Positions 9,749 to 52,452 of a stretch of 64,000 bases of DNA are shown in pieces (within the stretch, counting starts at the first letter, position 1; each line of letters begins with the position of its first letter). The DNA lies in NCBI RefSeq assembly GCF_000027125.1, contig NC_017626.1, one strand, 5' to 3'. This stretch comes from Escherichia coli 042 (lineage in GTDB: Bacteria > Pseudomonadota > Gammaproteobacteria > Enterobacterales > Enterobacteriaceae). The notes under the pieces were generated by a model that was not told the origin of the DNA, searched no databases, and saw nothing but the letters and a program-made list of their open reading frames with translations. The position numbers and the translations under genes are program-made.

Positions 9749-9922
9749 ATCACAATATGCTTCGACCGGAGTTTTTCCCGCTTCATAGTCATCACGCTAG
9801 GATTCGACATCAGCAGCACTTCCACCGCGTAACTCACCATAGTCCATTAATAGTTCATCCCGCTCTTCAAAACTGATGTTATATTTAGCTGAACAAAAAT
9901 CAGCCACTTTGTTCTTCCTCAT
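9749..9922 (-). pseudogene. Small prophage ORF interrupted by in-frame TAG
   Basis: Own translation from ATG 9922: MRKNKVADFCSAKYNISFEERDELLMDYGELRGGSAADVES, TAG at 9799..9797. The frame then stays open for 15 more codons. Confidence 0.3.
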
Positions 9923-9971
9923 CGTCTTTTATTTCGTGGTATGAGTAATTGCAGTAGTTAAAGAAAATTTC

Positions 9972-10082
9972 TTATGCTCCGTCATGAATTTCCTCAGGTG
10001 TTGCGTCATCGTCCACTTCGAATACATCCTCAAAATCTCCACCAGCTATTCCCGTTTCAATAATAATTTTGAACTTTCGCAT
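9972..10082 (-). CDS. Candidate 36-aa acidic prophage peptide
   Basis: ATG 10082 after a GC hairpin. MRKFKIIIETGIAGGDFEDVFEVDDDATPEEIHDGA, TAA 9974..9972. Confidence 0.25.
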   Translation of the reverse strand: MRKFKIIIETGIAGGDFEDVFEVDDDATPEEIHDGA

Positions 10083-42917: not shown

Positions 42918-43973
42918 TTAACCAATTTTGACGGTAACAAATTTGCGAATATCTGCCGGTACCGGCTGCGGTGCACTGTGTGTCTGCACGTACTCAATCG
43001 CCGGATCGCCGTCCTCAATCCAGTTTTTCGGGTAAAACATGTTTTGTGTTGCGCCCGTTCTTACCGCTTCCTGATCCATTATCGCACCATAGGCCACCAG
43101 CCCTTTATTGTTGGTGTTACCCAGGACCAGCAAATCAGGCTCAAGGAAATATTTTTCGGTACCATCGCTGTCAGTGTATTTGCCGGAATAGACGATAAGG
43201 GCCAGATCACCAAGATAGCCTTTAAAGCTCACCACTTCGCCCAGGTTTTTACAGGCCAGTTCGGCGGCGGATTCTGAACCACGGGAAAGATCGTACAGCT
43301 CACGGAATTTTTTAAAGCTGCGTAATGTGCGCCATACCTCAGCGCCCATAATCATGACGTTTGCGGGGCAACCAGCCTGATCAGCATAAAGCTCGATGTC
43401 ATAGATTGGGTCGTGCATGTCTTTATCCTGCTCGGACCATTTTTTACCCTTGGCCTGCTCTATGATGCAGTTTTCCGGTATTTTCCAGTCGATTTCATAG
43501 CGTTCTATGCCTTCGCCCTCAATGATGTTTTTTCCGGTCGTTACCGCATTCACCGCCAGCCATTCCACGCGTGCCTTAATGGCGTTTATCTGGCGGCGCA
43601 TGTTGCCAGTAATCAGGCGCATACGGCGATAGGTAGGGTCGTTAAGCTGTGCCGGATCTTCTCCAGCCATGCGCATGATGGTTTTCGTTGGATCGATTTC
43701 GTGCTTTGGCTTCATGTAGCCAGGTTTGATTGTGCTGGTTTCGTACCCTTTATCGCGCTGAACCTGGCTACCCACCATAGGCGAACAAAACGCCGACATG
43801 GTGACTTCTTCAATGTCCAGGGTATCCAGCATGATGTTTTGCGTGCTGAATGTCGCCACGTTCGGGAAAAACAGCGTGGTAAACAGAGGGCTGAATTTAA
43901 AATCCGCAATATCCCCGCGATTCAGGTACATGAAAAGCTGGTTAGTGTTAAGTGCCGTTGCTTTGCCTGCCAT
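42918..43973 (-). CDS. Major capsid protein, lambda gpE family (351 aa)
   Basis: Blocks PGYMKPKHEIDP, DPTYRRMRLI, YSGKYTDSDG..KYFL, LVLGNTNNKGL.AYG, YPKNWIEDGDPA, SAP align with lambda gpE PGYVKPKHEVNP, DPAYRRRRII, YSGQYVENGVKKNFL, MVLGNTQARGLRTYG, YPKNWVTTGDPA, SAP (recalled). Confidence 0.9.
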   Translation of the reverse strand: MAGKATALNTNQLFMYLNRGDIADFKFSPLFTTLFFPNVATFSTQNIMLDTLDIEEVTMSAFCSPMVGSQVQRDKGYETSTIKPGYMKPKHEIDPTKTIMRMAGEDPAQLNDPTYRRMRLITGNMRRQINAIKARVEWLAVNAVTTGKNIIEGEGIERYEIDWKIPENCIIEQAKGKKWSEQDKDMHDPIYDIELYADQAGCPANVMIMGAEVWRTLRSFKKFRELYDLSRGSESAAELACKNLGEVVSFKGYLGDLALIVYSGKYTDSDGTEKYFLEPDLLVLGNTNNKGLVAYGAIMDQEAVRTGATQNMFYPKNWIEDGDPAIEYVQTHSAPQPVPADIRKFVTVKIG

Positions 43974-44179
43974 TATTCACCCCCATAATTTTTATGCATC
44001 CCAAGCGCCGCAAGTAAATAAGAGCGTACAAGTGAACCTATCGACGGCTCCGGCGTCATCAGCGGATCCAGTCCAGCCGCAACGCCAGCTTCATAGTTTT
44101 TTTTGTGGCGCTGCTTGAGCACCTCCACGATTTCGGGGCTTATGTACACCGAAACACCGCCTTTTTTCTCTTCAGCCAT
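43973..44179 (-). CDS. Hypothetical protein, first gene of the capsid operon (68 aa)
   Basis: ORF 43973..44212 trimmed to ATG 44179 (AGGAA RBS); TAATG overlap with the capsid gene. MAEEKKGGVSVYISPEIVEVLKQRHKKNYEAGVAAGLDPLMTPEPSIGSLVRSYLLAALGMHKNYGGE. Confidence 0.55.
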   Translation of the reverse strand: MAEEKKGGVSVYISPEIVEVLKQRHKKNYEAGVAAGLDPLMTPEPSIGSLVRSYLLAALGMHKNYGGE

Positions 44180-44235
44180 AGTAAGAAATTCCTCTTCGAC
44201 TAAAAAAATCATAACTGGATGTTTATCCAGTTATG

Positions 44236-44263
44236 ATTATAATCAGAATTGCATTTTATGCAA
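44236..44263 (-). promoter_or_regulatory. Sigma70-type promoter of the capsid operon (TTGCAT-16 nt-TATAAT)
   Basis: -35 at 44263..44258, -10 at 44241..44236 on the minus strand. The -35 lies inside the palindrome ATTGCAT-TTT-ATGCAAT (44248-44264). Confidence 0.5.
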
Positions 44264-44340
44264 TGATATTGAGTTATGTTGCAAATTATGAAATGATTAT
44301 CCCGATCACGAACGCCAGTGCATCCAAAAACCTCATATGC

Positions 44341-44382
44341 AAAAGCCCGATAAGAACCCTCTGACCTTATCGGGCTTTTTTT
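44341..44382. terminator. Bidirectional terminator hairpin
   Basis: AAAA-GCCCGATAAG-(11 nt)-CTTATCGGGC-TTTTTTT. Confidence 0.6.
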
Positions 44383-44388
44383 GGGCGC

Positions 44389-44410
44389 AAAAAAGCCGGA
44401 TTGCTCCGGC
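44389..44410 (-). terminator. Rho-independent terminator (copy of the GCCGGA..TCCGGC module) after the 74-aa gene
   Basis: Minus strand GCCGGAGCAATCCGGC + TTTTTT. Confidence 0.65.
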
Positions 44411-44430
44411 TATGTGTGCTGTGTGCTGGC

Positions 44431-44655
44431 TCAGTCTCTGATCTCTTTCAGAAATTCTATCAATGCATCTATCTGTTCAGGATTTACCGCCAGCATTTCA
44501 CCGGATAGAGCACATCTCACAAAACCATGCTGATCCTTTTCAATCAGTGCGCCCGTCTCCAGGAATGCGCGGTAATCATTGATGCTCATCGTCTCCATGT
44601 TGTCAGCATGGTATTTATCACGCTGTTTTAATATCTCATCAAATTTCATCGGCAT
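44431..44655 (-). CDS. Hypothetical island protein (74 aa), stand-alone cassette between two terminators
   Basis: GAGGA RBS. MPMKFDEILKQRDKYHADNMETMSINDYRAFLETGALIEKDQHGFVRCALSGEMLAVNPEQIDALIEFLKEIRD. Confidence 0.55.
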   Translation of the reverse strand: MPMKFDEILKQRDKYHADNMETMSINDYRAFLETGALIEKDQHGFVRCALSGEMLAVNPEQIDALIEFLKEIRD

Positions 44656-44750
44656 TGTTTTTTTCCTCTGTTGTGTCTGTTTGTTTCAGATAGTAACTAT
44701 GCCTGACCGTGACGAAAACCCGGTAATGCGCCATACCGTTTCAACTGGTG

Positions 44751-44773
44751 CAAAAAAAGCCGGATTTCTCCGG
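44751..44773 (-). terminator. Rho-independent terminator after the PerC-like gene
   Basis: Minus strand GCCGGAGAAATCCGGC + TTTTTTT. Confidence 0.7.
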
Positions 44774-44781
44774 CTGTTTGA

Positions 44782-45054
44782 TTAGCTGTCCTGGTAATTG
44801 CGCCATATTTCATCACCAGCACCATCTATACCCATTTCGGCATAAGTGCGATCGACTGCCTTTTTCAGGTCTCCGAAATTATCCGGCGGCTCCGGTGCCC
44901 TCTGTGCCTTCCTTGAACATTCCAGCCGTCGCATCGTGATGTGATGCCGTTCCTTGTCTGTCTCCACCAGCTGCATGACTTCACCCCATCGCGCCGCCGC
45001 CCTCCGGTAAAAGCCTTTCGCCTCCAGTTCCTCCGCTATGCGGTCATGTACCAT
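44782..45054 (-). CDS. PerC/Pch-family transcriptional activator (90 aa)
   Basis: ORF 44782..45174 trimmed to ATG 45054 behind GAGGGGG. MVHDRIAEELEAKGFYRRAAARWGEVMQLVETDKERHHITMRRLEC... parallels the PerC/Pch core ..LEEAGLWRRAATRWL.V....TDEERDWI.RRR..C (recalled). Confidence 0.7.
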   Translation of the reverse strand: MVHDRIAEELEAKGFYRRAAARWGEVMQLVETDKERHHITMRRLECSRKAQRAPEPPDNFGDLKKAVDRTYAEMGIDGAGDEIWRNYQDS

Positions 45055-45064
45055 CGTCACCCCC

Positions 45065-45475
45065 TCAGAACGAAATATCATCACCGTAAGGGTCATCGCC
45101 TCCCGCTGGTGGCTGATTACCCTGTGTGCCTGTGGTTTTGCGTCTGTTCCCGCCTGGACGTGCCGCGCGGGCACTGATTACGCTGTCTGCGATAACCTGC
45201 CAGCCCTGCCGCGTTTCTCCGTTCTGTCCGGTCCACTGGCTTACCTGCATCGTGCCGGATACGCTGGCAACATCGCCTTTTTGATGTTTAGCCAGGAAGT
45301 CGGCCTGTTTGCCAAATGCGATGACCGATAACCATAACGTCGCCTGTCCGTCCTGTGCCTGGCTGCATGGCAAAGATACCGCCATACGCGCCAGCGTCAT
45401 CGGTGTGCCCTTGCTGGTCTGTTTTACCTGCGGGTCGTCCACCAGCCGCCCGTAAGCGGCTATCTGTGCCGTCAT
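45065..45475 (-). CDS. ssb: Single-stranded DNA-binding protein (OB fold, Gly/Pro-rich linker, acidic tip DDISF)
   Basis: MTAQIAAYGRLVDDPQVKQTSKGTPMTLARMAV...GNQPPAGGDDPYGDDISF. The C-terminal tip resembles the SSB DDDIPF client-binding tail. Confidence 0.75.
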   Translation of the reverse strand: MTAQIAAYGRLVDDPQVKQTSKGTPMTLARMAVSLPCSQAQDGQATLWLSVIAFGKQADFLAKHQKGDVASVSGTMQVSQWTGQNGETRQGWQVIADSVISARAARPGGNRRKTTGTQGNQPPAGGDDPYGDDISF

Positions 45476-45723
45476 AATTCCACCTCTCCGGTTTTAACGT
45501 TGATGGTTGTTACCTGTTCCGCTTCGGCAATCTCCCGTTCTGTCAGCGTGGCAAAGTTTGCCGCCGCCGTGGTCATGAATGCGCTTATCAGGTCGGGATG
45601 TTCCTTCGCGTATCCTTCCCGCGTGTGGCGGTCTATCGTTCTGATTGCCACCTTTAAGGTGTGCTCAGTCATGTCTAACGCTTTATATTTTGGCTCTGTT
45701 CTGTCTCTGCGTTTTTGGGTCAT
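45472..45723 (-). CDS. Hypothetical island protein (83 aa; start uncertain)
   Basis: ORF 45472..45753 trimmed to ATG 45723 (GAGAGG RBS). ATGA-type overlap with the ssb start. Confidence 0.45.
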   Translation of the reverse strand: MTQKRRDRTEPKYKALDMTEHTLKVAIRTIDRHTREGYAKEHPDLISAFMTTAAANFATLTEREIAEAEQVTTINVKTGEVEL

Positions 45724-45734
45724 TTCTCGCAACC

Positions 45735-45925
45735 TCTCACTTTTTCGCCTCACTTTTTCAAGCGTCTCACTTCGTCGCAGTTGGGATTTTCGGTTTTTCT
45801 ATGTGTGTGTTTCATAAGTATTTTTTTACCCCTCACTTTTGAGGATGTATACAGGTCGAAAAGTGAGGGAGAGCGGGCTAATTTTGGCCCTCTTTCTATC
45901 CCCCTCGCTTTTGCTCCTCACTTTT
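45735..45925. repeat. Iteron cluster CTCACTTTT (6 direct or near-direct copies plus 1 inverted): putative island replication origin
   Basis: Direct copies at 45736, 45749, 45766 (CTCACTTCG), 45832, 45904 (CTCGCTTTT), 45917. Inverted copy at 45858-45869. AT-rich stretch 45781-45830. Directly 3' of the rep gene. Confidence 0.65.
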
Positions 45926-47324
45926 ATAGCGGCGCTACATCATCCCCATCGATACGAATAACCCCATCTTTTTCCAGCTTGTACAGCCAGCGCCGGAAGT
46001 TTTTCATTTCATACCCCAGCTTTTTCATGTCATCACGTAACAGCGGGATCGTGCACTTGTCGCCGTTCTGTGTGCGTGAACGGATGCACCCCCATAGCGC
46101 GGTATGGTTTTCCGTCTTGTTCCCTGCCTCCTCGATGCGCTCCAGTTCAACAGGAGGGCGCGGATCATCCACCACCACCAGCGACGTGATTAATTCACCG
46201 TCAGCGTCGGTAAAAAGCTCCACCACGCGTAAGTCATATGCGGCTTCTTTGAGTTCCTCCGCGTCCTTCATTTTGGTGCATGAGATAACCAGCGCTTCGC
46301 TTCCTGCGTCCTCCCTGCGTATCCGGTATTCAGCATCCAGCGAAGCACGAAATGCACTGGAACCGCGCGCGCCTTTCGTCTCATCCTTGCCGGAATGGTG
46401 AACCACCAGCACCGTGGCCCCTGTGCGTCGTTTCAGTTCGTCACAACCACGGATAAACGCCCCCATATCACGGGAATCATTTTCATCATTCCCACCAAAG
46501 CAACGCGCCAGCGTATCCAGAATAATCATGCGTACAGGTTTACCCGTTTCCCGCTCCACCTGACGGGCAGCGATAACCATTTCATCAACATCAAGCGGGG
46601 CAGCCGGAAAGATGGGGCGGTTTACCAGATACAGATTTTTCACCTGCTCATCGTGCACAACCTCCCAGGCTTTTACACGACGCGGAACACCTATACCGCC
46701 TTCACCAACCACATAGAGAACCGCACCATGTGCAACCCTGCGGCCTCCCCACTGGCGACCAGTGGCAACATGGCACGCCCACGATCCAGCAAGGAATGAT
46801 TTATAGGACCCGCTAGCCCCGTATATGCTGCATAGCGATACCGCCGGAATAATCCCCTTAACCACGTAATCCAGTTGCGTGTCGTATCCGGTAGATCCAA
46901 CGCTCATCGGTAGCGTGGTTTTTCGCTGGTGTTTTTTTTCTTCCGCCGGCTCTTTCCCGCGCACCCGTTCCAGGTATTCGCGCCAGTTCTCCCGCATATG
47001 GCTGTGCATCCCTTCGGGGTAATAATTCGCATCAGTTACACCCGCCGCCGCCAGCTTGTGCGCAATGGCATTAATATTTGATGGCCTGATGTGGCCTGCC
47101 TTGTACAGCCGGACACAATAGCGCCCCTCGTCGATGATTCTCAGGTCTGCCAGTTCATCCAGTTGATCATCAGCCAGCACAACGGGAGGCACATTATCGC
47201 CAGCCAGTCGCCCGTCCTGTTCCTGCCACTGTTTCGCATGTGCCCAGGCATCACTACCCGCAAAAATAATGACTTCGGTCATCTTGTCGTAAGGCTGTTT
47301 TTTTAAGTTCGGTGCGCTTTTCAT
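45924..47324 (-). CDS. Replication initiator ATPase (RecA/RepA-like AAA_25-type core, C-terminal wHTH), 466 aa
   Basis: Walker A GASGSYKS, Walker B MIILDTLARCFGG, VLVVHHSGKDETKGARGSSA sensor region. C-terminal basic wHTH-like tail. Confidence 0.8.
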   Translation of the reverse strand: MKSAPNLKKQPYDKMTEVIIFAGSDAWAHAKQWQEQDGRLAGDNVPPVVLADDQLDELADLRIIDEGRYCVRLYKAGHIRPSNINAIAHKLAAAGVTDANYYPEGMHSHMRENWREYLERVRGKEPAEEKKHQRKTTLPMSVGSTGYDTQLDYVVKGIIPAVSLCSIYGASGSYKSFLAGSWACHVATGRQWGGRRVAHGAVLYVVGEGGIGVPRRVKAWEVVHDEQVKNLYLVNRPIFPAAPLDVDEMVIAARQVERETGKPVRMIILDTLARCFGGNDENDSRDMGAFIRGCDELKRRTGATVLVVHHSGKDETKGARGSSAFRASLDAEYRIRREDAGSEALVISCTKMKDAEELKEAAYDLRVVELFTDADGELITSLVVVDDPRPPVELERIEEAGNKTENHTALWGCIRSRTQNGDKCTIPLLRDDMKKLGYEMKNFRRWLYKLEKDGVIRIDGDDVAPL

Positions 47325-47620
47325 TTCTTGCCCCTGAATCCGTTAACCATGGTTTTCAGCTTCTGGATGTTTGCCCGTGCCCTGGCGTTGCTGGTGGGCA
47401 CGTTATGCGGCGCGGTCTGTACCAGAGAAAAATCACGCCGGAACTGATAAACAGGCATCACGCAATCATATTCGTAACCTTCACGGCGGTAGGTTACGCG
47501 CCGTTCTTCCACGTCCTTAATCATTACCGTGCCGCCGTACTGGTCGCGGTAAATATCACCGCGCGTAAATTTAGGGTGAGTGTTGCCACTGGCAGTTAAG
47601 CCAGAATATTTAAGTTTCAT
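47321..47620 (-). CDS. DUF4222-like small protein (99 aa)
   Basis: ..GDIYRDQYGGTVMIKDVEERRVTYRREGYEYDCVMPVYQFRRDFSLV resembles the DUF4222 pattern as I recall it. ATGA overlap with rep. Confidence 0.5.
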   Translation of the reverse strand: MKLKYSGLTASGNTHPKFTRGDIYRDQYGGTVMIKDVEERRVTYRREGYEYDCVMPVYQFRRDFSLVQTAPHNVPTSNARARANIQKLKTMVNGFRGKK

Positions 47621-47625
47621 TATTT

Positions 47626-47859
47626 TTATTCTCCGGTGTGCTGTTCTTTATATCTGTCGTGCAATAGATCTATTTCTTGCAGTTCCATTATTACAGGCTC
47701 AAGAAGCGTTATTAATGCTGTGGCAATTCTTGATTTTTGTTTGTCGCGTTCATTGTCGCCAAGTGTTTCAAGCCATATGCGCAATATTTCCATCATGTTT
47801 TCACTGTGAGAAAGTGCAAGAAATGCGCGGTCTATTGTTTGGTGGTAAATATCACGCAT
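47626..47859 (-). CDS. Hypothetical island protein (77 aa)
   Basis: MRDIYHQTIDRAFLALSHSENMMEILRIWLETLGDNERDKQKSRIATALITLLEPVIMELQEIDLLHDRYKEQHTGE; helical, overlaps the upstream gene by 8 nt. Confidence 0.5.
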   Translation of the reverse strand: MRDIYHQTIDRAFLALSHSENMMEILRIWLETLGDNERDKQKSRIATALITLLEPVIMELQEIDLLHDRYKEQHTGE

Positions 47860-48319
47860 GGCTTACATCCTCAGGAAATTTTCTTCTATAACGCGCCTCT
47901 GCCACATATTCCGCATAATCGGCGGCGATATTCAGTACATCAAGCCCCGTTGATTTATATTCTCTCGTGGAAAGTAAGAAAAAAGCCGCTCTAATAAGTT
48001 CTGGCATTGACGAAAGCGCATCAGCCGCATCATCAGGAACGCCGGAAAATTCCTGTTTCAGGGAATTAAAACGATCATCACGCATAACCCCCCCCCCATT
48101 TTCACAATCAGCAATCAGGATAGCTTTGGCCTCATTCAGCGCCGTATCAGCACTAAATTGCATGACAGCCAGTGAGTGAGGAACGAAAGCACCGGCATAT
48201 TCTGTTTCGCTGGTGGCGTGCTTATGTGCCCTGTCCGCGATAACAGAAATATCAATCAGCGCGTGCATCAGCGTTTTGATGGCTTCGGCGGCTGCGTCCG
48301 GTGTGGTTTTATTGTGCAT
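47852..48319 (-). CDS. Hypothetical island protein (155 aa)
   Basis: MHNKTTPDAAAEAIKTLMHALIDISVIADRAHKHATSETEYAGAFVPHSLAVMQF... No family recognised; part of the tightly packed early operon. Confidence 0.55.
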   Translation of the reverse strand: MHNKTTPDAAAEAIKTLMHALIDISVIADRAHKHATSETEYAGAFVPHSLAVMQFSADTALNEAKAILIADCENGGGVMRDDRFNSLKQEFSGVPDDAADALSSMPELIRAAFFLLSTREYKSTGLDVLNIAADYAEYVAEARYRRKFPEDVSHA

Positions 48320-48521
48320 AAAGCATCCCCTGAATATTCGTGTTAATCATTCCGGCACGTTTTGTGATTTCCTGTAATGATTCCCTTGTGGCGACAATTG
48401 CTTCATCTGGTAAGTGGTAATTACACACCACGCGACCTTTATCCACATTGACCAGTAGCTGCCCTGTGAATTTCTCACGAAACTGAATGCGGTTAAGGTC
48501 AGTAAGTGACAGATTAATCAT
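48309..48521 (-). CDS. Hypothetical island protein (70 aa)
   Basis: ORF 48309..48563 trimmed to ATG 48521 behind AGGAGG. MINLSLTDLNRIQFREKFTGQLLVNVDKGRVVCNYHLPDEAIVATRESLQEITKRAGMINTNIQGMLYAQ. Confidence 0.5.
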   Translation of the reverse strand: MINLSLTDLNRIQFREKFTGQLLVNVDKGRVVCNYHLPDEAIVATRESLQEITKRAGMINTNIQGMLYAQ

Positions 48522-48711
48522 GGCGCACCTCCTGACGAATACGGGCGGCAAATACAGCAACACAACCGGACGGGCAACGGTTACGCGCTTCGCGTTCCGT
48601 CCAGGCGGTTACGTGGATGATTTGAGATTCTCCGGCACTCAGTGCCAGAAAACGCCACACAAAGGCCGTTTGTGTGTGTACAAGGTGTGGTATATGATTT
48701 ACAGCAACCAT
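48514..48711 (-). CDS. Small protein resembling Icd-like host cell-division inhibitors of P4-type elements (65 aa); tentative
   Basis: ORF 48514..48786 trimmed to ATG 48711 behind AGGAG. ..FVWRFLALSAGESQIIHVTAWTEREARNRCPSGCVAVFAARI fits my recollection of the F.W.F.A....V.A..E.EAR......FAAR pattern. Confidence 0.4.
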   Translation of the reverse strand: MVAVNHIPHLVHTQTAFVWRFLALSAGESQIIHVTAWTEREARNRCPSGCVAVFAARIRQEVRHD

Positions 48712-48784
48712 AACGGCTCCTAGTTTACGTTGTTGGTTAGAAGCCCTGCGAGTGGTAACGACACTTGCGGGGCTTTGTCTTTTC
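48703..48784 (+). ncRNA. Candidate ~80-nt antisense RNA across the RBS/start of the first early gene
   Basis: Extended -10 TGgTATATG (48688-48696) upstream. Then a 14-bp stem (48741-48754 / 48762-48775, two G-U pairs only on the plus-strand RNA) followed by TGTCTTTTC. Confidence 0.3.
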
Positions 48785-48802
48785 ATCGATTACCTTGATA
48801 AA

Positions 48803-48884
48803 GGTGTCAGCCACTATATTAGTAACGGGTGTCAGCCACGTCAATAGTGTTTTTCCGTTTTCTTGTGTGTATACTGTCAGCCAC
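48803..48884. promoter_or_regulatory. Divergent switch region: three GTCAGCCAC operators interleaved with face-to-face promoters
   Basis: GGTGTCAGCCAC at 48803-48814 and 48828-48839; CTGTCAGCCAC at 48874-48884. Minus-strand promoter TTGACG (48844..48839)-17 nt-TAATAT (48821..48816). Plus-strand TATACT at 48870-48875. Confidence 0.6.
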
Positions 48885-48905
48885 CTAATAACGAGGAAAT
48901 CAGAT

Positions 48906-49085
48906 ATGGCAACAAAAGCAGTTAATGCAAAATCCAAAAAGCTTGAGGCTCGAGTACCACACGCAATAGCTGATGCTGTAGAAAATTTAAAGGAAGATGG
49001 CGAAAGTACAGGGCAATTTATCGTTTCGGCACTTGAAGGCGAGATCAAACGCCGCCAGCGCCGCAAGGCCAAAGAATCAGAATAA
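48906..49085 (+). CDS. Ribbon-helix-helix-like small DNA-binding protein (59 aa): candidate island repressor
   Basis: ORF 48765..49085 trimmed to ATG 48906 behind AGGAA. MATKAVNAKSKKLEARVPHAIADAVENLKEDGESTGQFIVSALEGEIKRRQRRKAKESE has a beta-strand/helix/helix pattern typical of Arc/CopG proteins. Confidence 0.55.
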   Translation: MATKAVNAKSKKLEARVPHAIADAVENLKEDGESTGQFIVSALEGEIKRRQRRKAKESE

Positions 49086-49127
49086 TCACTATCAGCGCCG
49101 TGGTGTGAGGTATTACGGCGCATTGCT

Positions 49128-49316
49128 ATGCAGGACAACACAATGACCGATAAAGAATTGACCAAAACATTATCACCGGCACGGAAAAGACGGCGCAGAA
49201 AGATAGAGCATGAATCAGAAAGATTCGCACCATGTGCTTTTGCCCTTGAGCAATTCCTTAAAGAGTACAGGGAAAAGCGCTCATTGCAGGTATGGCAACG
49301 AACTGAACCAGACTGA
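49128..49316 (+). CDS. Possible second small gene of the plus-strand unit (62 aa, basic)
   Basis: ORF-track MQDNTMTDKELTKTLSPARKRRRRKIEHESERFAPCAFALEQFLKEYREKRSLQVWQRTEPD. Weak RBS, so may instead be non-coding. Confidence 0.3.
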   Translation: MQDNTMTDKELTKTLSPARKRRRRKIEHESERFAPCAFALEQFLKEYREKRSLQVWQRTEPD

Positions 49317-49411
49317 TTGCATTGCCCACCAGCCTGATAGCGGCTATCATCCCCGTGCTTATGTTTGGGATCACACACACAAACGGCGCAGCGGGTTATC
49401 TGTTCAGAAAG

Positions 49412-49439
49412 GCGGCTCCATTTCGGGGCCGCTTTTTTT
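49412..49439 (+). terminator. Rho-independent terminator of the plus-strand unit
   Basis: GCGGCTCC-ATTTC-GGGGCCGC followed by TTTTTTT. Confidence 0.65.
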
Positions 49440-49585
49440 ATACCTGAAAAACCCCAATTTTGTTGTTTTTCAGTTTCACCAGGGCGAACGAATCCCCGCC
49501 CACGTTCTGGCGTATATTCAATCTTCATGGTTATAGCTCTGTGTTCAGATGATTGATGTGTGGCGGCTGCGTGCCGCCAGCGTGA

Positions 49586-49774
49586 TTAATGAACTGCCTT
49601 GCAGCTATCCTTCCAGGCCAGAACCTCGGATAAAGACCAGCCAACGGAACGACCGCCAAGTTTACGACGTGATGGGAATTGTCCGGCCTTTTCCAGGCGG
49701 TAGCGACACGTACGGCTAAGGCCGGTTAGTTTTTCGCATTCTTTTTCACGTATAAACCGATCAGTGCTTAACAC
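49586..49774 (-). CDS. alpA: AlpA-family HTH regulator/excisionase (62 aa, GTG start)
   Basis: Strong GGGGGGG RBS. ..DRFIREKECEKLTGLSRTCRYRLEKAGQFPSRRKLGGRSVGWSLSEVLAWKD is the AlpA/MerR-like HTH signature. Confidence 0.85.
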   Translation of the reverse strand: MLSTDRFIREKECEKLTGLSRTCRYRLEKAGQFPSRRKLGGRSVGWSLSEVLAWKDSCKAVH

Positions 49775-50107
49775 TATTGCCCCCCCTTTCGTTTCTTAAA
49801 GAGTCATCAGGTGTCTTATTGTGTCGTATTGTTCCCGCTAGAGTGATGAATGGCAAATATTGAGGATGTATGATTTACAGAAAATGAAACAGTAAGAATA
49901 AAATCTTTTAAATTCATGTTAATACAAAGGCATAAAATATTGTTTCATGCCTTTTTTCTCGCTCTTTAAAGAGTGATTCGCTAGTGTATAAAAAACCAGT
50001 GACACATTAAAAATCAGCCACTTATAAATCTGTATGCTTTTTCGCCTCTTGTTCGTGGTTGTTCCACATTGTTGCTCATTGTTGCACGTTGTATCTGTTC
50101 GCATATA

Positions 50108-50123
50108 CAGTATGCGCATACTG
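50108..50123. promoter_or_regulatory. Perfect 16-bp palindrome CAGTATGCGCATACTG just 3' of int
   Basis: No loop, so more likely a protein-binding site than an RNA hairpin. Adjacent ATTGTTGC direct repeats at 50068-50087. Confidence 0.4.
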
Positions 50124-50140
50124 AAAAAACACGAAAAAAA

Positions 50141-51370
50141 TTATTTTCTTCTGGCTACTGGTAGCGTGGTTACGTTTTCATGTGTTCCCGCCAGTATCCC
50201 TAACCGCTCCGTCCACATATCCAGCGCATTGCGTTTAGCATCCAGATAACGGGAATGATTATAAACTCGCTGCATTCCTGGCATCTGGTGGCCTGTAAGC
50301 TGCTCCACGACATGCGGATCAACGCCTAAATCGTTCAGCATGGTTGTAAAGGTGCGCCGGATGTCATGCAGTGACCAGTGAGGATGATTAAGCCTCCTGT
50401 GCGCTAATCTTCCATACTGCGATACGCTGGCCTCCTGTTTCACTTCCCCCAGCAATAAGCCCGTGTGCCTGTTCTGCTCCACCAGCTGCGTGACGAACGG
50501 CAGGATCGCTTCCGGTATGGGCCGGAATATTGCGACCTTCGTTTTGCTGTGCTCCTTCGGAACGGTCCATAGCATTTCCGTAAAATCCCACTCCCCGATC
50601 TCCGATAACCTCAGTTCTACCGTTCTGGCTCCGAAGACAATCAGGAGGCGGATTAACGCGACGTAGTAAGGGGAGAATATTTTTTTGTCCAGTGCCTGCA
50701 ATAATTCGCCAAGTTCTTTGTTACTTAAGACACGTTCGCTTATATCCGGTTTTTTCCCAACGTCCGCCACGTTCAGATCGTCCAGAACGTTGCTGATTGC
50801 ATAGCGCCGCCTACGGCAGAACTTAAGCGCCTGTTTGCACGCCTGTAGCACGAATCCGGCAGTAACAGGCGTTCGCTTTGCCACCTGGTCAAAACAGGCC
50901 AGCCAGTGCCGTAGCTCGCATTTATCCAGCGGCATAGCACCAATCTGCTGTATTACGTGATTATTAAGTCGCCTTTTCAGGGCGATATAATCCACGCGGT
51001 TTTCCTTTACGTAATACTCAAGCCAGTAGGTGAGCGCATCGCCAACCGTTACCGGCTTTAACGCTTCCTGTACGGTGTAATTAAGCTCATGACGTGGATT
51101 TTTCCCCTCTGCCAGCCATGCGCGACACTGGGCGGCTTTTTCCCTGGCTGATTTCAGGCTCAGATCAGGATAACTTCCCAGCTTAATGCGTTCGGGTCGT
51201 GTCTCCCTTCCCGTTCCGGCCCTGTATGTGAAATACCAGGTCAATTTCCCTGATGTTAAATATTTCACGCTCAGGTTTCCGCCATCACTATAAAACGTGT
51301 TTTTCTCCGCTGGCTTACCATGAAGTTTCCTTAGCAAGGTATCGCTCAGTTTGTTCATTGCTCTGCTCAC
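50141..51370 (-). CDS. int: P4-type tyrosine integrase (DUF4102 arm-binding N-terminus), 409 aa, GTG start behind GAGGGGG
   Basis: N-terminus ..LSDTLLRKLHGKPAEKNTFYSDGGNLSVKYLTSGKLTWYFTYR... Catalytic ARTVELRLSE (R), HDIRRTFTT (H..R), GHQMPGMQRVYNHSRY (H..Y). Confidence 0.9.
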   Translation of the reverse strand: MSRAMNKLSDTLLRKLHGKPAEKNTFYSDGGNLSVKYLTSGKLTWYFTYRAGTGRETRPERIKLGSYPDLSLKSAREKAAQCRAWLAEGKNPRHELNYTVQEALKPVTVGDALTYWLEYYVKENRVDYIALKRRLNNHVIQQIGAMPLDKCELRHWLACFDQVAKRTPVTAGFVLQACKQALKFCRRRRYAISNVLDDLNVADVGKKPDISERVLSNKELGELLQALDKKIFSPYYVALIRLLIVFGARTVELRLSEIGEWDFTEMLWTVPKEHSKTKVAIFRPIPEAILPFVTQLVEQNRHTGLLLGEVKQEASVSQYGRLAHRRLNHPHWSLHDIRRTFTTMLNDLGVDPHVVEQLTGHQMPGMQRVYNHSRYLDAKRNALDMWTERLGILAGTHENVTTLPVARRK

Positions 51371-51395
51371 GTTTTACCCCCTCTTTACGAAAAAG

Positions 51396-51417
51396 TGACT
51401 ACACCAGTGACTACACC
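51396..51417 (+). repeat. Tandem TGACTACACC x2 (arm-type site candidate), right arm, just upstream of int
   Basis: Identical to 40595-40616. Confidence 0.6.
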
Positions 51418-51545
51418 GATCGTTGCACAAAGGGCTACAACGTGAAACAAGCTGGAACAAGGAAAATCACAAATCTGTTGATAATCAAAAACATAATGCA
51501 CAGCCTGAAACATTATGAAACAGCAAAAAACACCAAATGATAAAA

Positions 51546-51554
51546 TGCTGTTAT
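51546..51554 (+). repeat. attR core (TGCTGTTAT)
   Basis: Direct repeat of 40512-40520. The tqsA reading frame resumes as [14 protein letters not shown]. Confidence 0.8.
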
Positions 51555-52452
51555 TCTTAACCCGCTGGTGCAACACATGGTCCGCTGGCGAGTGCCGCGT
51601 GTACTGGCGGTGTCGATTTTGATGACCATCATCGTGATGGCGATGGTGTTGCTGTTAGCTTATCTGGGTTCCGCGCTCAACGAGTTGACGCGGACGTTAC
51701 CGCAATATCGCAACTCTATTATGACGCCGCTGCAAGCGATTGAACCGTTGTTGCAACGCGTAGGGATTGATGTCTCAGTTGACCAACTGGCGCATTACAT
51801 TGATCCGAACGCGGCGATGACGTTGCTCACCAACTTATTGACGCAGTTATCTAATGCCATGTCATCAATATTTTTATTGCTGCTGACGGTGCTGTTTATG
51901 CTGCTCGAAGTGCCACAATTGCCCGGAAAATTTCAGCAAATGATGGCGCGTCCGGTTGAAGGGATGGCGGCGATTCAGCGTGCGATTGACAGTGTTTCTC
52001 ATTATCTGGTGCTGAAAACAGCCATCAGCATCATCACCGGCCTGGTCGCCTGGGCGATGCTCGCCGCACTCGATGTTCGCTTCGCTTTTGTCTGGGGATT
52101 GCTGGCCTTTGCGCTTAATTACATCCCTAATATTGGTTCAGTTCTCGCAGCAATTCCCCCTATCGCTCAGGTACTGGTGTTTAATGGCTTCTACGAAGCG
52201 TTGTTGGTGCTGGCGGGATATCTGCTGATTAATCTGGTCTTCGGCAATATTCTGGAGCCGCGCATCATGGGACGTGGGCTGGGGCTTTCGACATTGGTGG
52301 TATTTTTGTCGTTGATTTTTTGGGGATGGTTGTTAGGACCGGTGGGTATGCTGCTTTCCGTGCCGTTGACAATTATTGTCAAAATTGCGCTTGAACAAAC
52401 AGCGGGAGGTCAAAGCATCGCCGTTCTGTTAAGCGATCTCAATAAAGAGTGA
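51547..52452 (+). pseudogene. tqsA: tqsA 3' portion (codons ~44-344), separated from its start by the island
   Basis: Frame GCT GTT ATT CTT AAC CCG CTG GTG... = [30 protein letters not shown]... through LSDLNKE-stop. Confidence 0.9.

Follow-up and report, generated by a model that had tools for sequence, protein, structure and literature searches.

Does the first early gene of a phage satellite island in Escherichia coli 042 come under the control of an RNA transcribed from its opposite strand? The locus lies in a 64,000-nucleotide (nt) stretch of the chromosome (contig NC_017626.1; hereafter the window), where a small gene for an Icd-like protein heads the early, or replication, operon of the island. 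A sequence-only reading of this DNA had proposed that a plus-strand RNA of about 80 nt, equipped with its own promoter and terminator, would be complementary to the ribosome-binding site and start codon of this gene. The comparison of homologous islands argues for such an arrangement: the pairing of two hairpins is conserved on the plus strand, a -10 box keeps a fixed spacing to them, and homology ends at a T tract. It is likely that a cis-antisense RNA of approximately 81 nt, with a promoter and terminator of its own, represses translation of the Icd-like gene. The following features define this RNA and its target.

48704-48784, plus strand: predicted cis-antisense RNA of ~81 nt, its 5' end placed to within +/-2 nt and its 3' end in the U tract
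48693-48698, plus strand: -10 box TATGAT, conserved among modules and overlapping Icd-like codons 5-7
48670-48675, plus strand: candidate -35 element TTGTGT, with a 17-nt spacer to the -10 box, from the sequence and a weight matrix
48706-48738, plus strand: hairpin SL1, from RNA folding
48740-48776, plus strand: terminator hairpin SL2, 15 base pairs (bp) and a 7-nt loop (48740-48754 pairing with 48762-48776), from a terminator scan
48774-48784, plus strand: T-rich tract TTTGTCTTTTC, read from the sequence, which completes the intrinsic terminator and marks a module boundary
48514-48711, minus strand: Icd-like gene, 65 amino acids, first in the early (replication) operon (NCBIfam NF033153, E = 5e-18)

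Judged by its sequence, SL2 together with the T tract is an intrinsic terminator read on the plus strand: a G+C-rich stem-loop (8 G-C pairs among 15 bp) stands directly before a U-rich tail (GTCTTTTCAT) on the transcribed strand. The hairpin, its tail, the ribosome-binding site and the start codon all lie where the sequence-only reading had placed them; its 14-bp stem (48741-48754 with 48762-48775) is in fact one pair longer, with a terminal G48740.U48776. That reading had also held that two G.U pairs favor the plus strand, and this is borne out by folding. The internal pairs 48747.48769 and 48750.48766 both become C.A mismatches on the minus strand, and the hairpin folds at -26.8 kcal/mol as plus-strand RNA (z = -7.7, equaled by none of 200 shuffles) versus -16.3 kcal/mol (z = -4.35) as minus-strand RNA. 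The same bias is seen in the homologous islands. Among 25 distinct hairpin cores, 23 gave the more stable fold on the plus strand, and the cores together hold 44 G.U pairs on the plus strand and 13 on the minus strand. Compensatory changes replace A-U with C-G (17 v 15 sequences) and G-C with C-G (25 v 8), and every variant ends in a T-rich tail of differing sequence. Island L228 even has an unrelated hairpin sequence at the SL2 position. A plus-strand pairing bias and a T tail that are kept despite this turnover are therefore the signature of a plus-strand RNA structure. The only plus-strand open reading frame (ORF) considered as a source of the terminator, of 78 amino acids (48487-48723), is broken or absent in the other leader classes, so no plus-strand protein gene ends there.

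The rest of the predicted transcript is structured as well. RNA 48704-48784 has a predicted two-hairpin fold of -35.5 kcal/mol (z = -4.67; 0 of 200 shuffles equal). This fold was predicted for all four leader classes despite their differing sequences, and the RNA contains no AUG and no conserved ORF. The start codon of the Icd-like gene occupies 48711-48709 and its Shine-Dalgarno sequence, AGGAG, is the complement of 48718-48722. Accordingly, the 5' arm of SL1 carries the start-codon complement CAU (48709-48711), while its 12-nt loop (48716-48727) presents the anti-Shine-Dalgarno sequence CUCCU (48718-48722). The RNA thus spans the complements of both elements, as the sequence-only reading had noted, and it does so in all four leader classes. 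Invariant GGTTAG (UGGUUAG in the RNA) makes up the 3' arm, which explains the invariance of a GGTTAGA motif at this place. The closing helix varies among classes (AACCA, AGCCA or UAGCUACC against UGGUU or GGUGGUUA) and retains its pairing through G.U pairs, owing to which the plus strand was the more stable in 19 of 19 distinct SL1 variants. The predicted transcription start precedes SL1 by 1-2 nt in the classes tested.

The two-hairpin structure was also scored on a MAFFT alignment of 33 distinct plus-strand RNAs. Pairing was possible in 90.6% of the aligned cells, compared with 42-45% when partners were slid by 1-3 columns and with 78.1% when the same columns were read on the minus strand. 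The covariation score was 0.202 versus 0.135 for shuffled alignments, and none of 500 shuffles reached the observed value.

The promoter of the RNA would lie within the first codons of the Icd-like gene. The sequence-only reading had named an extended -10 element, TGgTATATG, and TGGTATATG is indeed present at 48688-48696; it is not conserved, however, and reads TGGGGTATGAT in class 1b. The conserved box is the overlapping TATGAT, 2 nt downstream of the earlier element. Among ~102 distinct modules the box reads TATGAT in 82, TATGCT in 16, TATAAT in 3 and TATTAT in 1, and none of these variants loses T-12, A-11 or T-7. It stands 42-43 nt from GGTTAGA in all four leader classes, despite a 6-nt shift of the start codon between classes. 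The TATAAT and TATTAT variants turn the overlapping His codon into Tyr or Asn and bring the box nearer to consensus; similarly, the codons flanking the box change the encoded amino acid (Asn/Gln/Glu; Ile/Thr/Ser) yet keep T-12 and T-7. The candidate -35 element TTGTGT is absent from class 3 islands, which have an extended -10, TGnTATGAT. Scored with a sigma-70 weight matrix of our own, TTGTGT-17-TATGAT was the best plus-strand candidate in 48500-48740 and fell in the top 0.03% of positions in the window. The homologous site ranked at or near the top in most class representatives tested, with L184 as the exception. Transcription would start from this box at ~48704-48706, only 1-3 nt from the start suggested earlier.

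A second, sense-strand hairpin was observed in the same part of the gene. At 48646-48676 on the minus strand, within Icd-like codons 12-22, CACACAAA-CGGCC-TTTGTGTG followed by GCGTTTTCTG forms a terminator-like structure that the terminator scan also called on the sense strand. It is nearly nucleotide-invariant in leader classes 1, 2 and 4 and shares positions with the antisense promoter's candidate -35; in class 3 islands the equivalent place holds another G+C-rich hairpin, CCCGC-CCTT-GCGGG. From its sequence and position, it could be an intragenic attenuator active when the Icd-like gene is untranslated.

The module that contains these elements is widespread. Region 48500-49100 has matches in 1580 of 5426 complete E. 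coli genomes and region 48640-48800 in 850 of them, including O157:H7 EDL933 and Sakai; in Sakai, the counterpart of the island is the element named prophage Sp7. Nearly all BLAST alignments end at 48783-48787 (query 143-146), the last bases of the T tract, and so do those of IMG/VR loci, of which 80 were counted in one comparison and 160 in another. Beyond this point, islands carry at least a dozen unrelated modules of promoter, operators and repressor. Thus, the conserved cassette comprises T tract, hairpin, leader and first codons, and it is found at the head of both Icd-like genes and genes of the 'ash family', whose first ~24 codons are common to both. For example, in L084 (2234-2572, compared with window positions 48640-48711), the 'ash family protein' genes diverge after ~24 codons and a separate Icd-like gene is next. 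With leader and first codons shared before differing genes, the regulatory cassette appears portable between first genes.

On the other side of the T tract lie the elements that would control transcription of the operon in the window.

48816-48844, minus strand: early sense promoter TTGACG-17-TAATAT, from a consensus scan (9/12 matches)
48805-48814, 48830-48839 and 48875-48884, no strand assigned: three exact copies of the direct repeat TGTCAGCCAC, from a repeat search
48906-49085, plus strand: divergent gene of the YlcI/YnfO family, 59 amino acids (NCBIfam NF041551, E = 1e-16)

The early sense promoter also had the top score of the weight matrix across the whole window. The early mRNA is predicted to start near 48809, and its 5' untranslated region therefore holds the entire antisense RNA region. 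One copy of TGTCAGCCAC lies between the early -35 and -10 elements, one just past the -10 and one over the start region of the divergent YlcI/YnfO gene; from this placement, the repeats are probably operators bracketing the early and divergent promoters. The same positions in other islands are occupied by unrelated repeats, which identifies this DNA as a swappable immunity module. The YlcI/YnfO-family protein has no sequence match in Pfam or the PDB, and its position suggests that it is a putative repressor of the early promoter. The cf-PICI prototype EcCIEDL933, introduced below (L087 3098-3841, equivalent to the window from position 48737 on), and Sakai Sp7 are without the divergent repressor. 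In EDL933 and Sakai, a sense ORF of 247 amino acids (ECs_1576) reads across the terminator hairpin and stops at the TAA within the invariant TCTAACC.

These elements suggest a mechanism in which a sigma-70 promoter, with its -10 box inside the early codons of the Icd-like gene, would drive a short RNA that ends at the Rho-independent terminator formed by SL2 and the U tract. Termination would take place ~25 nt before the early promoter and operators and would keep antisense transcription out of them. The RNA would most likely pair with the Icd-like leader and occlude its ribosome-binding site, and the resulting duplex would probably be degraded. The Icd-like protein would thereby be kept off in the quiescent island. 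Because the early ORFs overlap, repression could also reach the downstream replication genes by polarity. This RNA layer would act on top of the YlcI/YnfO-family repressor at the early promoter.

The position of the terminator can also be read in another way. It sits exactly where the operon module meets the swappable immunity module, and there it might merely insulate the latter from pervasive or spurious antisense transcription leaving the early operon, the short RNA being a by-product with no role in regulation; an antisense promoter of only moderate quality would suit this role. Insulation does not explain SL1, however, which is favored on the plus strand in every variant and presents an anti-Shine-Dalgarno sequence, nor why the -10 box is held at a fixed distance in four classes and is improved by substitutions that change the amino acid. 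We consider it unlikely that the terminator is an insulator only.

Another set of observations concerns what the RNA might recognize. Islands with nearly identical flanks differ greatly in the apical 16-20 nt of SL2 and, within class 3, in the 7-nt inner loop of SL1; among the types of hairpin top are GCGAGTGGTAACGACACTTGC in the window and GTATGTGTTCCCAGCACTGC in L010. SL1, SL2 and the upstream immunity modules are freely reshuffled, with up to 6 SL2 types per SL1. Furthermore, in many islands the module occurs a second time, with TATGCT as its -10 box and with SL1, SL2 and T tract, as in L001 at 9913-10031 and in L033, L047, L056, L068, L078, L080, L115, L120 and L188. The second copy lies upstream of a short unannotated ORF (MAIKEHSLLFIHTQ...) and adjoins a second YlcI/YnfO-like gene, so that those islands contain tandem immunity modules. 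The window has no further copy beyond the one described.

One could conclude from this variation that the RNA acts mainly in trans, with the hypervariable SL2 tops and SL1 loops providing specificity against incoming or co-resident islands of the same type or against a helper-phage or host transcript, and not only against its own leader. The shuffling and the second copies, which always have a different SL2 top, would fit a trans-acting RNA. Yet none of ~11 pairs of co-resident copies shares an SL2 type when chance sharing is only 8.7%, and for this reason no avoidance can be inferred from them: co-resident copies are expected to differ anyway. Phage records show no extended complementarity to the RNA, and neutral drift plus recombination in a terminator stem could yield the same pattern. 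A mainly trans-acting role is thus quite unlikely. A related idea, which we put forward tentatively and think rather unlikely, is that the RNA is an immunity or incompatibility determinant of Gram-negative satellites, its hypervariable hairpin tops being kissing-loop 'addresses' that define specificity groups. If so, an incoming island would have its early operon silenced by a resident of the same RNA type but not by residents of other types, and new specificities would arise through recombination at the invariant GGTTAGA junction.

The hairpins might also act in the sense leader only, as a 5' stabilizer, as a translational operator that sequesters the AUG or as a binding site for AlpA or an antiterminator, with no antisense RNA involved. 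The complement of SL2 does fold, as its minus-strand energy shows, a sense SL1 would pair the AUG region, and the EDL933 hairpin lies within an upstream sense-strand ORF. However, wherever pairing in the alignment is not Watson-Crick, the plus strand has G.U and the sense strand C.A or A.C: 90 cells (10 of the 22 pair columns) are G.U on the plus strand and none, in no column, on the minus strand. Similarly, 1x1 A.C mismatches across the 25 hairpin cores number 15 in the sense hairpins and 0 in the plus-strand ones. In addition, no U tract follows the sense hairpin, and the T tract and -10 box would go unexplained, which makes a purely sense-strand function highly improbable. A DNA-level element, either a protein-bound palindrome or a recombination hotspot marking the junction of exchangeable modules, would account for the clustering of homology breakpoints there and is hardly credible, since a palindrome gives no reason for strand-asymmetric G.T versus A.C mismatches and leaves unexplained both the one-sided T tract and a sequence turnover that preserves pairing.

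Several observations weigh against a repressing cis-antisense RNA. The -35 element is weak, agreeing with the consensus at 3 of 6 bases, and the antisense promoter was missed by the consensus scan. The promoter overlaps coding sequence, and part of its conservation could be protein-driven; the gene sequences compared are too alike to give a synonymous-site test across the gene any power. The structure behind the pair counts was taken from the window's plus strand and hence favors that strand for pairs present there. The homologues are closely related, recombining islands of Escherichia and Shigella; as a result, the variants are not independent and the phylogeny is shallow. The sole more distant homologue obtained, an E. 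albertii locus with 65% identity, is without such a terminator. Finally, an Hfq-CRAC (cross-linking and analysis of cDNA) study of O157 Sakai lists no small RNA in Sp7, a weak objection because cis-antisense RNAs need not bind Hfq.

Transcriptome data for EDL933 bear on the same issue. A Cappable-seq study of this strain reports 5,967 antisense starts, together with gene starts for int, alpA and the capsid gene (PMC10469882). In its gene-start table, uninduced cells show no start upstream of the Icd-like gene and none between alpA and the capsid gene (PMC10469882). The predicted antisense start corresponds to minus-strand positions 1682943-1682945 of EDL933 (NZ_CP008957.1), with the -10 box at 1682956-1682951 and a predicted 3' end near 1682865, and to minus-strand positions 1597505-1597507 of Sakai (NC_002695.2), with a predicted 3' end near 1597427.

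Searches beyond E. coli genomes returned few relatives of the module. A single scan of genome contigs returned only Shigella and E. albertii, the locus of the latter being without the module, and the INPHARED phage collection had no match to 48690-48790. The matching plasmid records comprised only three E. coli entries, plus weak matches in Xylella. The latter pair 48711-48802 with Xylella fastidiosa plasmids of ~38 kb (H103-H115; blastn 76% over 75 nt, E = 2e-3) at two places per plasmid, in unannotated DNA, and are probably due to chance.

A dedicated antisense RNA would change how induction of these satellites is viewed. Induction of Gram-negative phage-inducible chromosomal islands (PICIs) and of their capsid-forming kind (cf-PICIs) has been described through proteins only, namely AlpA, activated by a helper phage (10.1101/2022.09.08.507074). 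With the RNA, the first early gene would gain a post-transcriptional brake. Such a brake could explain how a quiescent island tolerates leaky transcription of its replication genes and of a cell-division inhibitor that is likely to be harmful, and it would offer an easily mutated handle on the thresholds of satellite induction. No antisense RNA at Icd-like genes or in PICIs was found in the literature, and the one proposed here appears to be undescribed. Because the module is common and present in EDL933 and Sakai, the prediction can be tested in strains with existing transcriptome data.

The island itself is inserted in the 5' end of tqsA, adjoining pntBA, in the E. coli chromosome. The insertion truncates tqsA (51568-52452) at its N-terminus, and the gene is annotated as 'AI-2 transporter TqsA, incomplete' in L001, a locus identical to the window across the 601 nt compared. 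Two further island genes in the window are listed here.

50141-51370, minus strand: integrase gene of the island
49586-49774, minus strand: AlpA gene, by Pfam

Pfam matches in the island are to AlpA, the AAA_25 helicase and DUF4222. In L001, the annotation names an integrase, a RepA helicase, SSB, PerC, a major capsid protein, a prohead protease, portal, head closure and connector proteins, an HNH protein and a small terminase. The features by which we recognized a cf-PICI were an island size of ~15 kb, int and alpA, replication genes, and capsid, protease, portal, connector and small-terminase genes of its own. On the annotation of L001, the island is a cf-PICI, because this identical locus is annotated with the capsid, protease, portal, connector and small-terminase genes. 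EcCIEDL933, the prototype of the cf-PICIs (10.1101/2022.09.08.507074), shares the early module of the window.

On the minus strand, the early operon runs from the Icd-like gene through overlapping small ORFs and DUF4222 to the RepA/AAA_25 helicase, and the stop codon of the Icd-like gene overlaps the following ORF by 8 nt. The family match given above agrees with the sequence-only reading, which had put an Icd-like gene at the head of the replication operon, and L001 names it 'host cell division inhibitor Icd-like protein'. Three copies of TTTTnCnCCTCACTTTT (45741-45757, 45824-45840 and 45909-45925), spaced by 83-85 nt, follow directly after the gene for the RepA-type helicase; these are iteron-like and may mark the replication origin of the island. 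Upstream of the operon, a strong hairpin (49405-49441, GGCGGC...GCCGC) with an A run and seven consecutive T as its flanks would terminate the YlcI/YnfO-orf62 transcript on the plus strand and on the minus strand would lie downstream of alpA. It has a weak match to Rfam STnc50 (22.9 vs 55 bits).

To place the predicted RNA among known systems, Rfam was searched with both strands of 43000-52000 at E <= 10 and, in a more permissive small-region search, with the 171-nt core 48660-48830. No family matched near its gathering score in either the 9 kb or the core; the rnk leader, for example, scored 18.6 vs 55 bits. Among the sub-threshold hits were two plasmid antisense RNAs, ctRNA_p42d (14.4 bits) and R1162 antisense RNA (15.5 bits), against gathering scores of 50-55.

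Type I toxin-antitoxin pairs such as hok/sok, ldr/rdl and ibs/sib resemble this locus in that a small antisense RNA prevents a small protein with the potential for harm from being translated; P1 Icd is an inhibitor of cell division. The toxins of such pairs are short hydrophobic membrane peptides encoded by stand-alone genes, whereas the Icd-like gene is the first of a long operon. Its product has no hydrophobic segment (the maximum 19-residue Kyte-Doolittle window is 0.97 and the grand average of hydropathy 0.02), and a usual type I pair was rejected on this ground.

The sequence-only reading had looked to the CI RNA of P4 for a precedent, and the analogy holds only loosely. In P1, the C4 RNA directly controls translation of icd, the namesake of the family found here, and C4 and CI, like the RNA proposed, exert RNA-level control at the leader of an early or immunity operon. 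They are, however, released from the sense transcript by processing, and their targets are repeated sites, at which P4 CI causes premature termination (PMC10111431). They are encoded on the same strand as their target, whereas the structure, G.U pattern, T tract and -10 box described here lie on the opposite strand. RNA immunity in Gram-negative PICIs has been noted only as C4/isrK matches, reported for some islands (PMC10111431); neither strand of 43000-52000, at E <= 10, nor the 48660-48830 core matched the C4/isrK models. With no such match, and with the predicted RNA encoded opposite the operon under its own promoter and terminator, membership was rejected. The RNA would serve an end similar to that of C4 and CI, and it is not a member of that family.

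Plasmid and transposon systems offer a parallel for the hairpins. CopA of R1, RNA I of ColE1 and RNA-OUT of IS10 are short, highly structured antisense RNAs that end at an intrinsic terminator. Pairing begins between their loops and the complementary loops of the target leader, and the loop and upper-stem sequences define specificity groups. Here too, both hairpins face complementary mRNA hairpins and their tops are hypervariable. Those RNAs control replication or transposition; the RNA of the satellite would control an early operon, with a specificity role only a possibility.

The closest functional analogue, as far as its known features go, would be the sar RNA of the immI region of phage P22. 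This cis-antisense RNA of 68-69 nt has its promoter at the start of ant, crosses the ant ribosome-binding site, terminates intrinsically between the cistrons upstream and represses ant translation. The promoter of the ant operon is also under small protein repressors, one of which (Mnt, with a ribbon-helix-helix fold like that of Arc) is divergently transcribed. The locus studied here has two hallmarks of a sar-type RNA, an antisense-oriented intrinsic terminator and complementarity to the Shine-Dalgarno sequence and start codon. As at ant, the promoter would lie in the first codons, the Shine-Dalgarno sequence and AUG are covered, the terminator follows a short way upstream, and a small divergent gene for a putative repressor adjoins, with probable operators. 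Unlike sar, whose target encodes an antirepressor and to which no sequence or Rfam relationship was found, the RNA described here would act on an Icd-like gene at the head of a replication operon, and it presents its anti-Shine-Dalgarno sequence in a hairpin loop.

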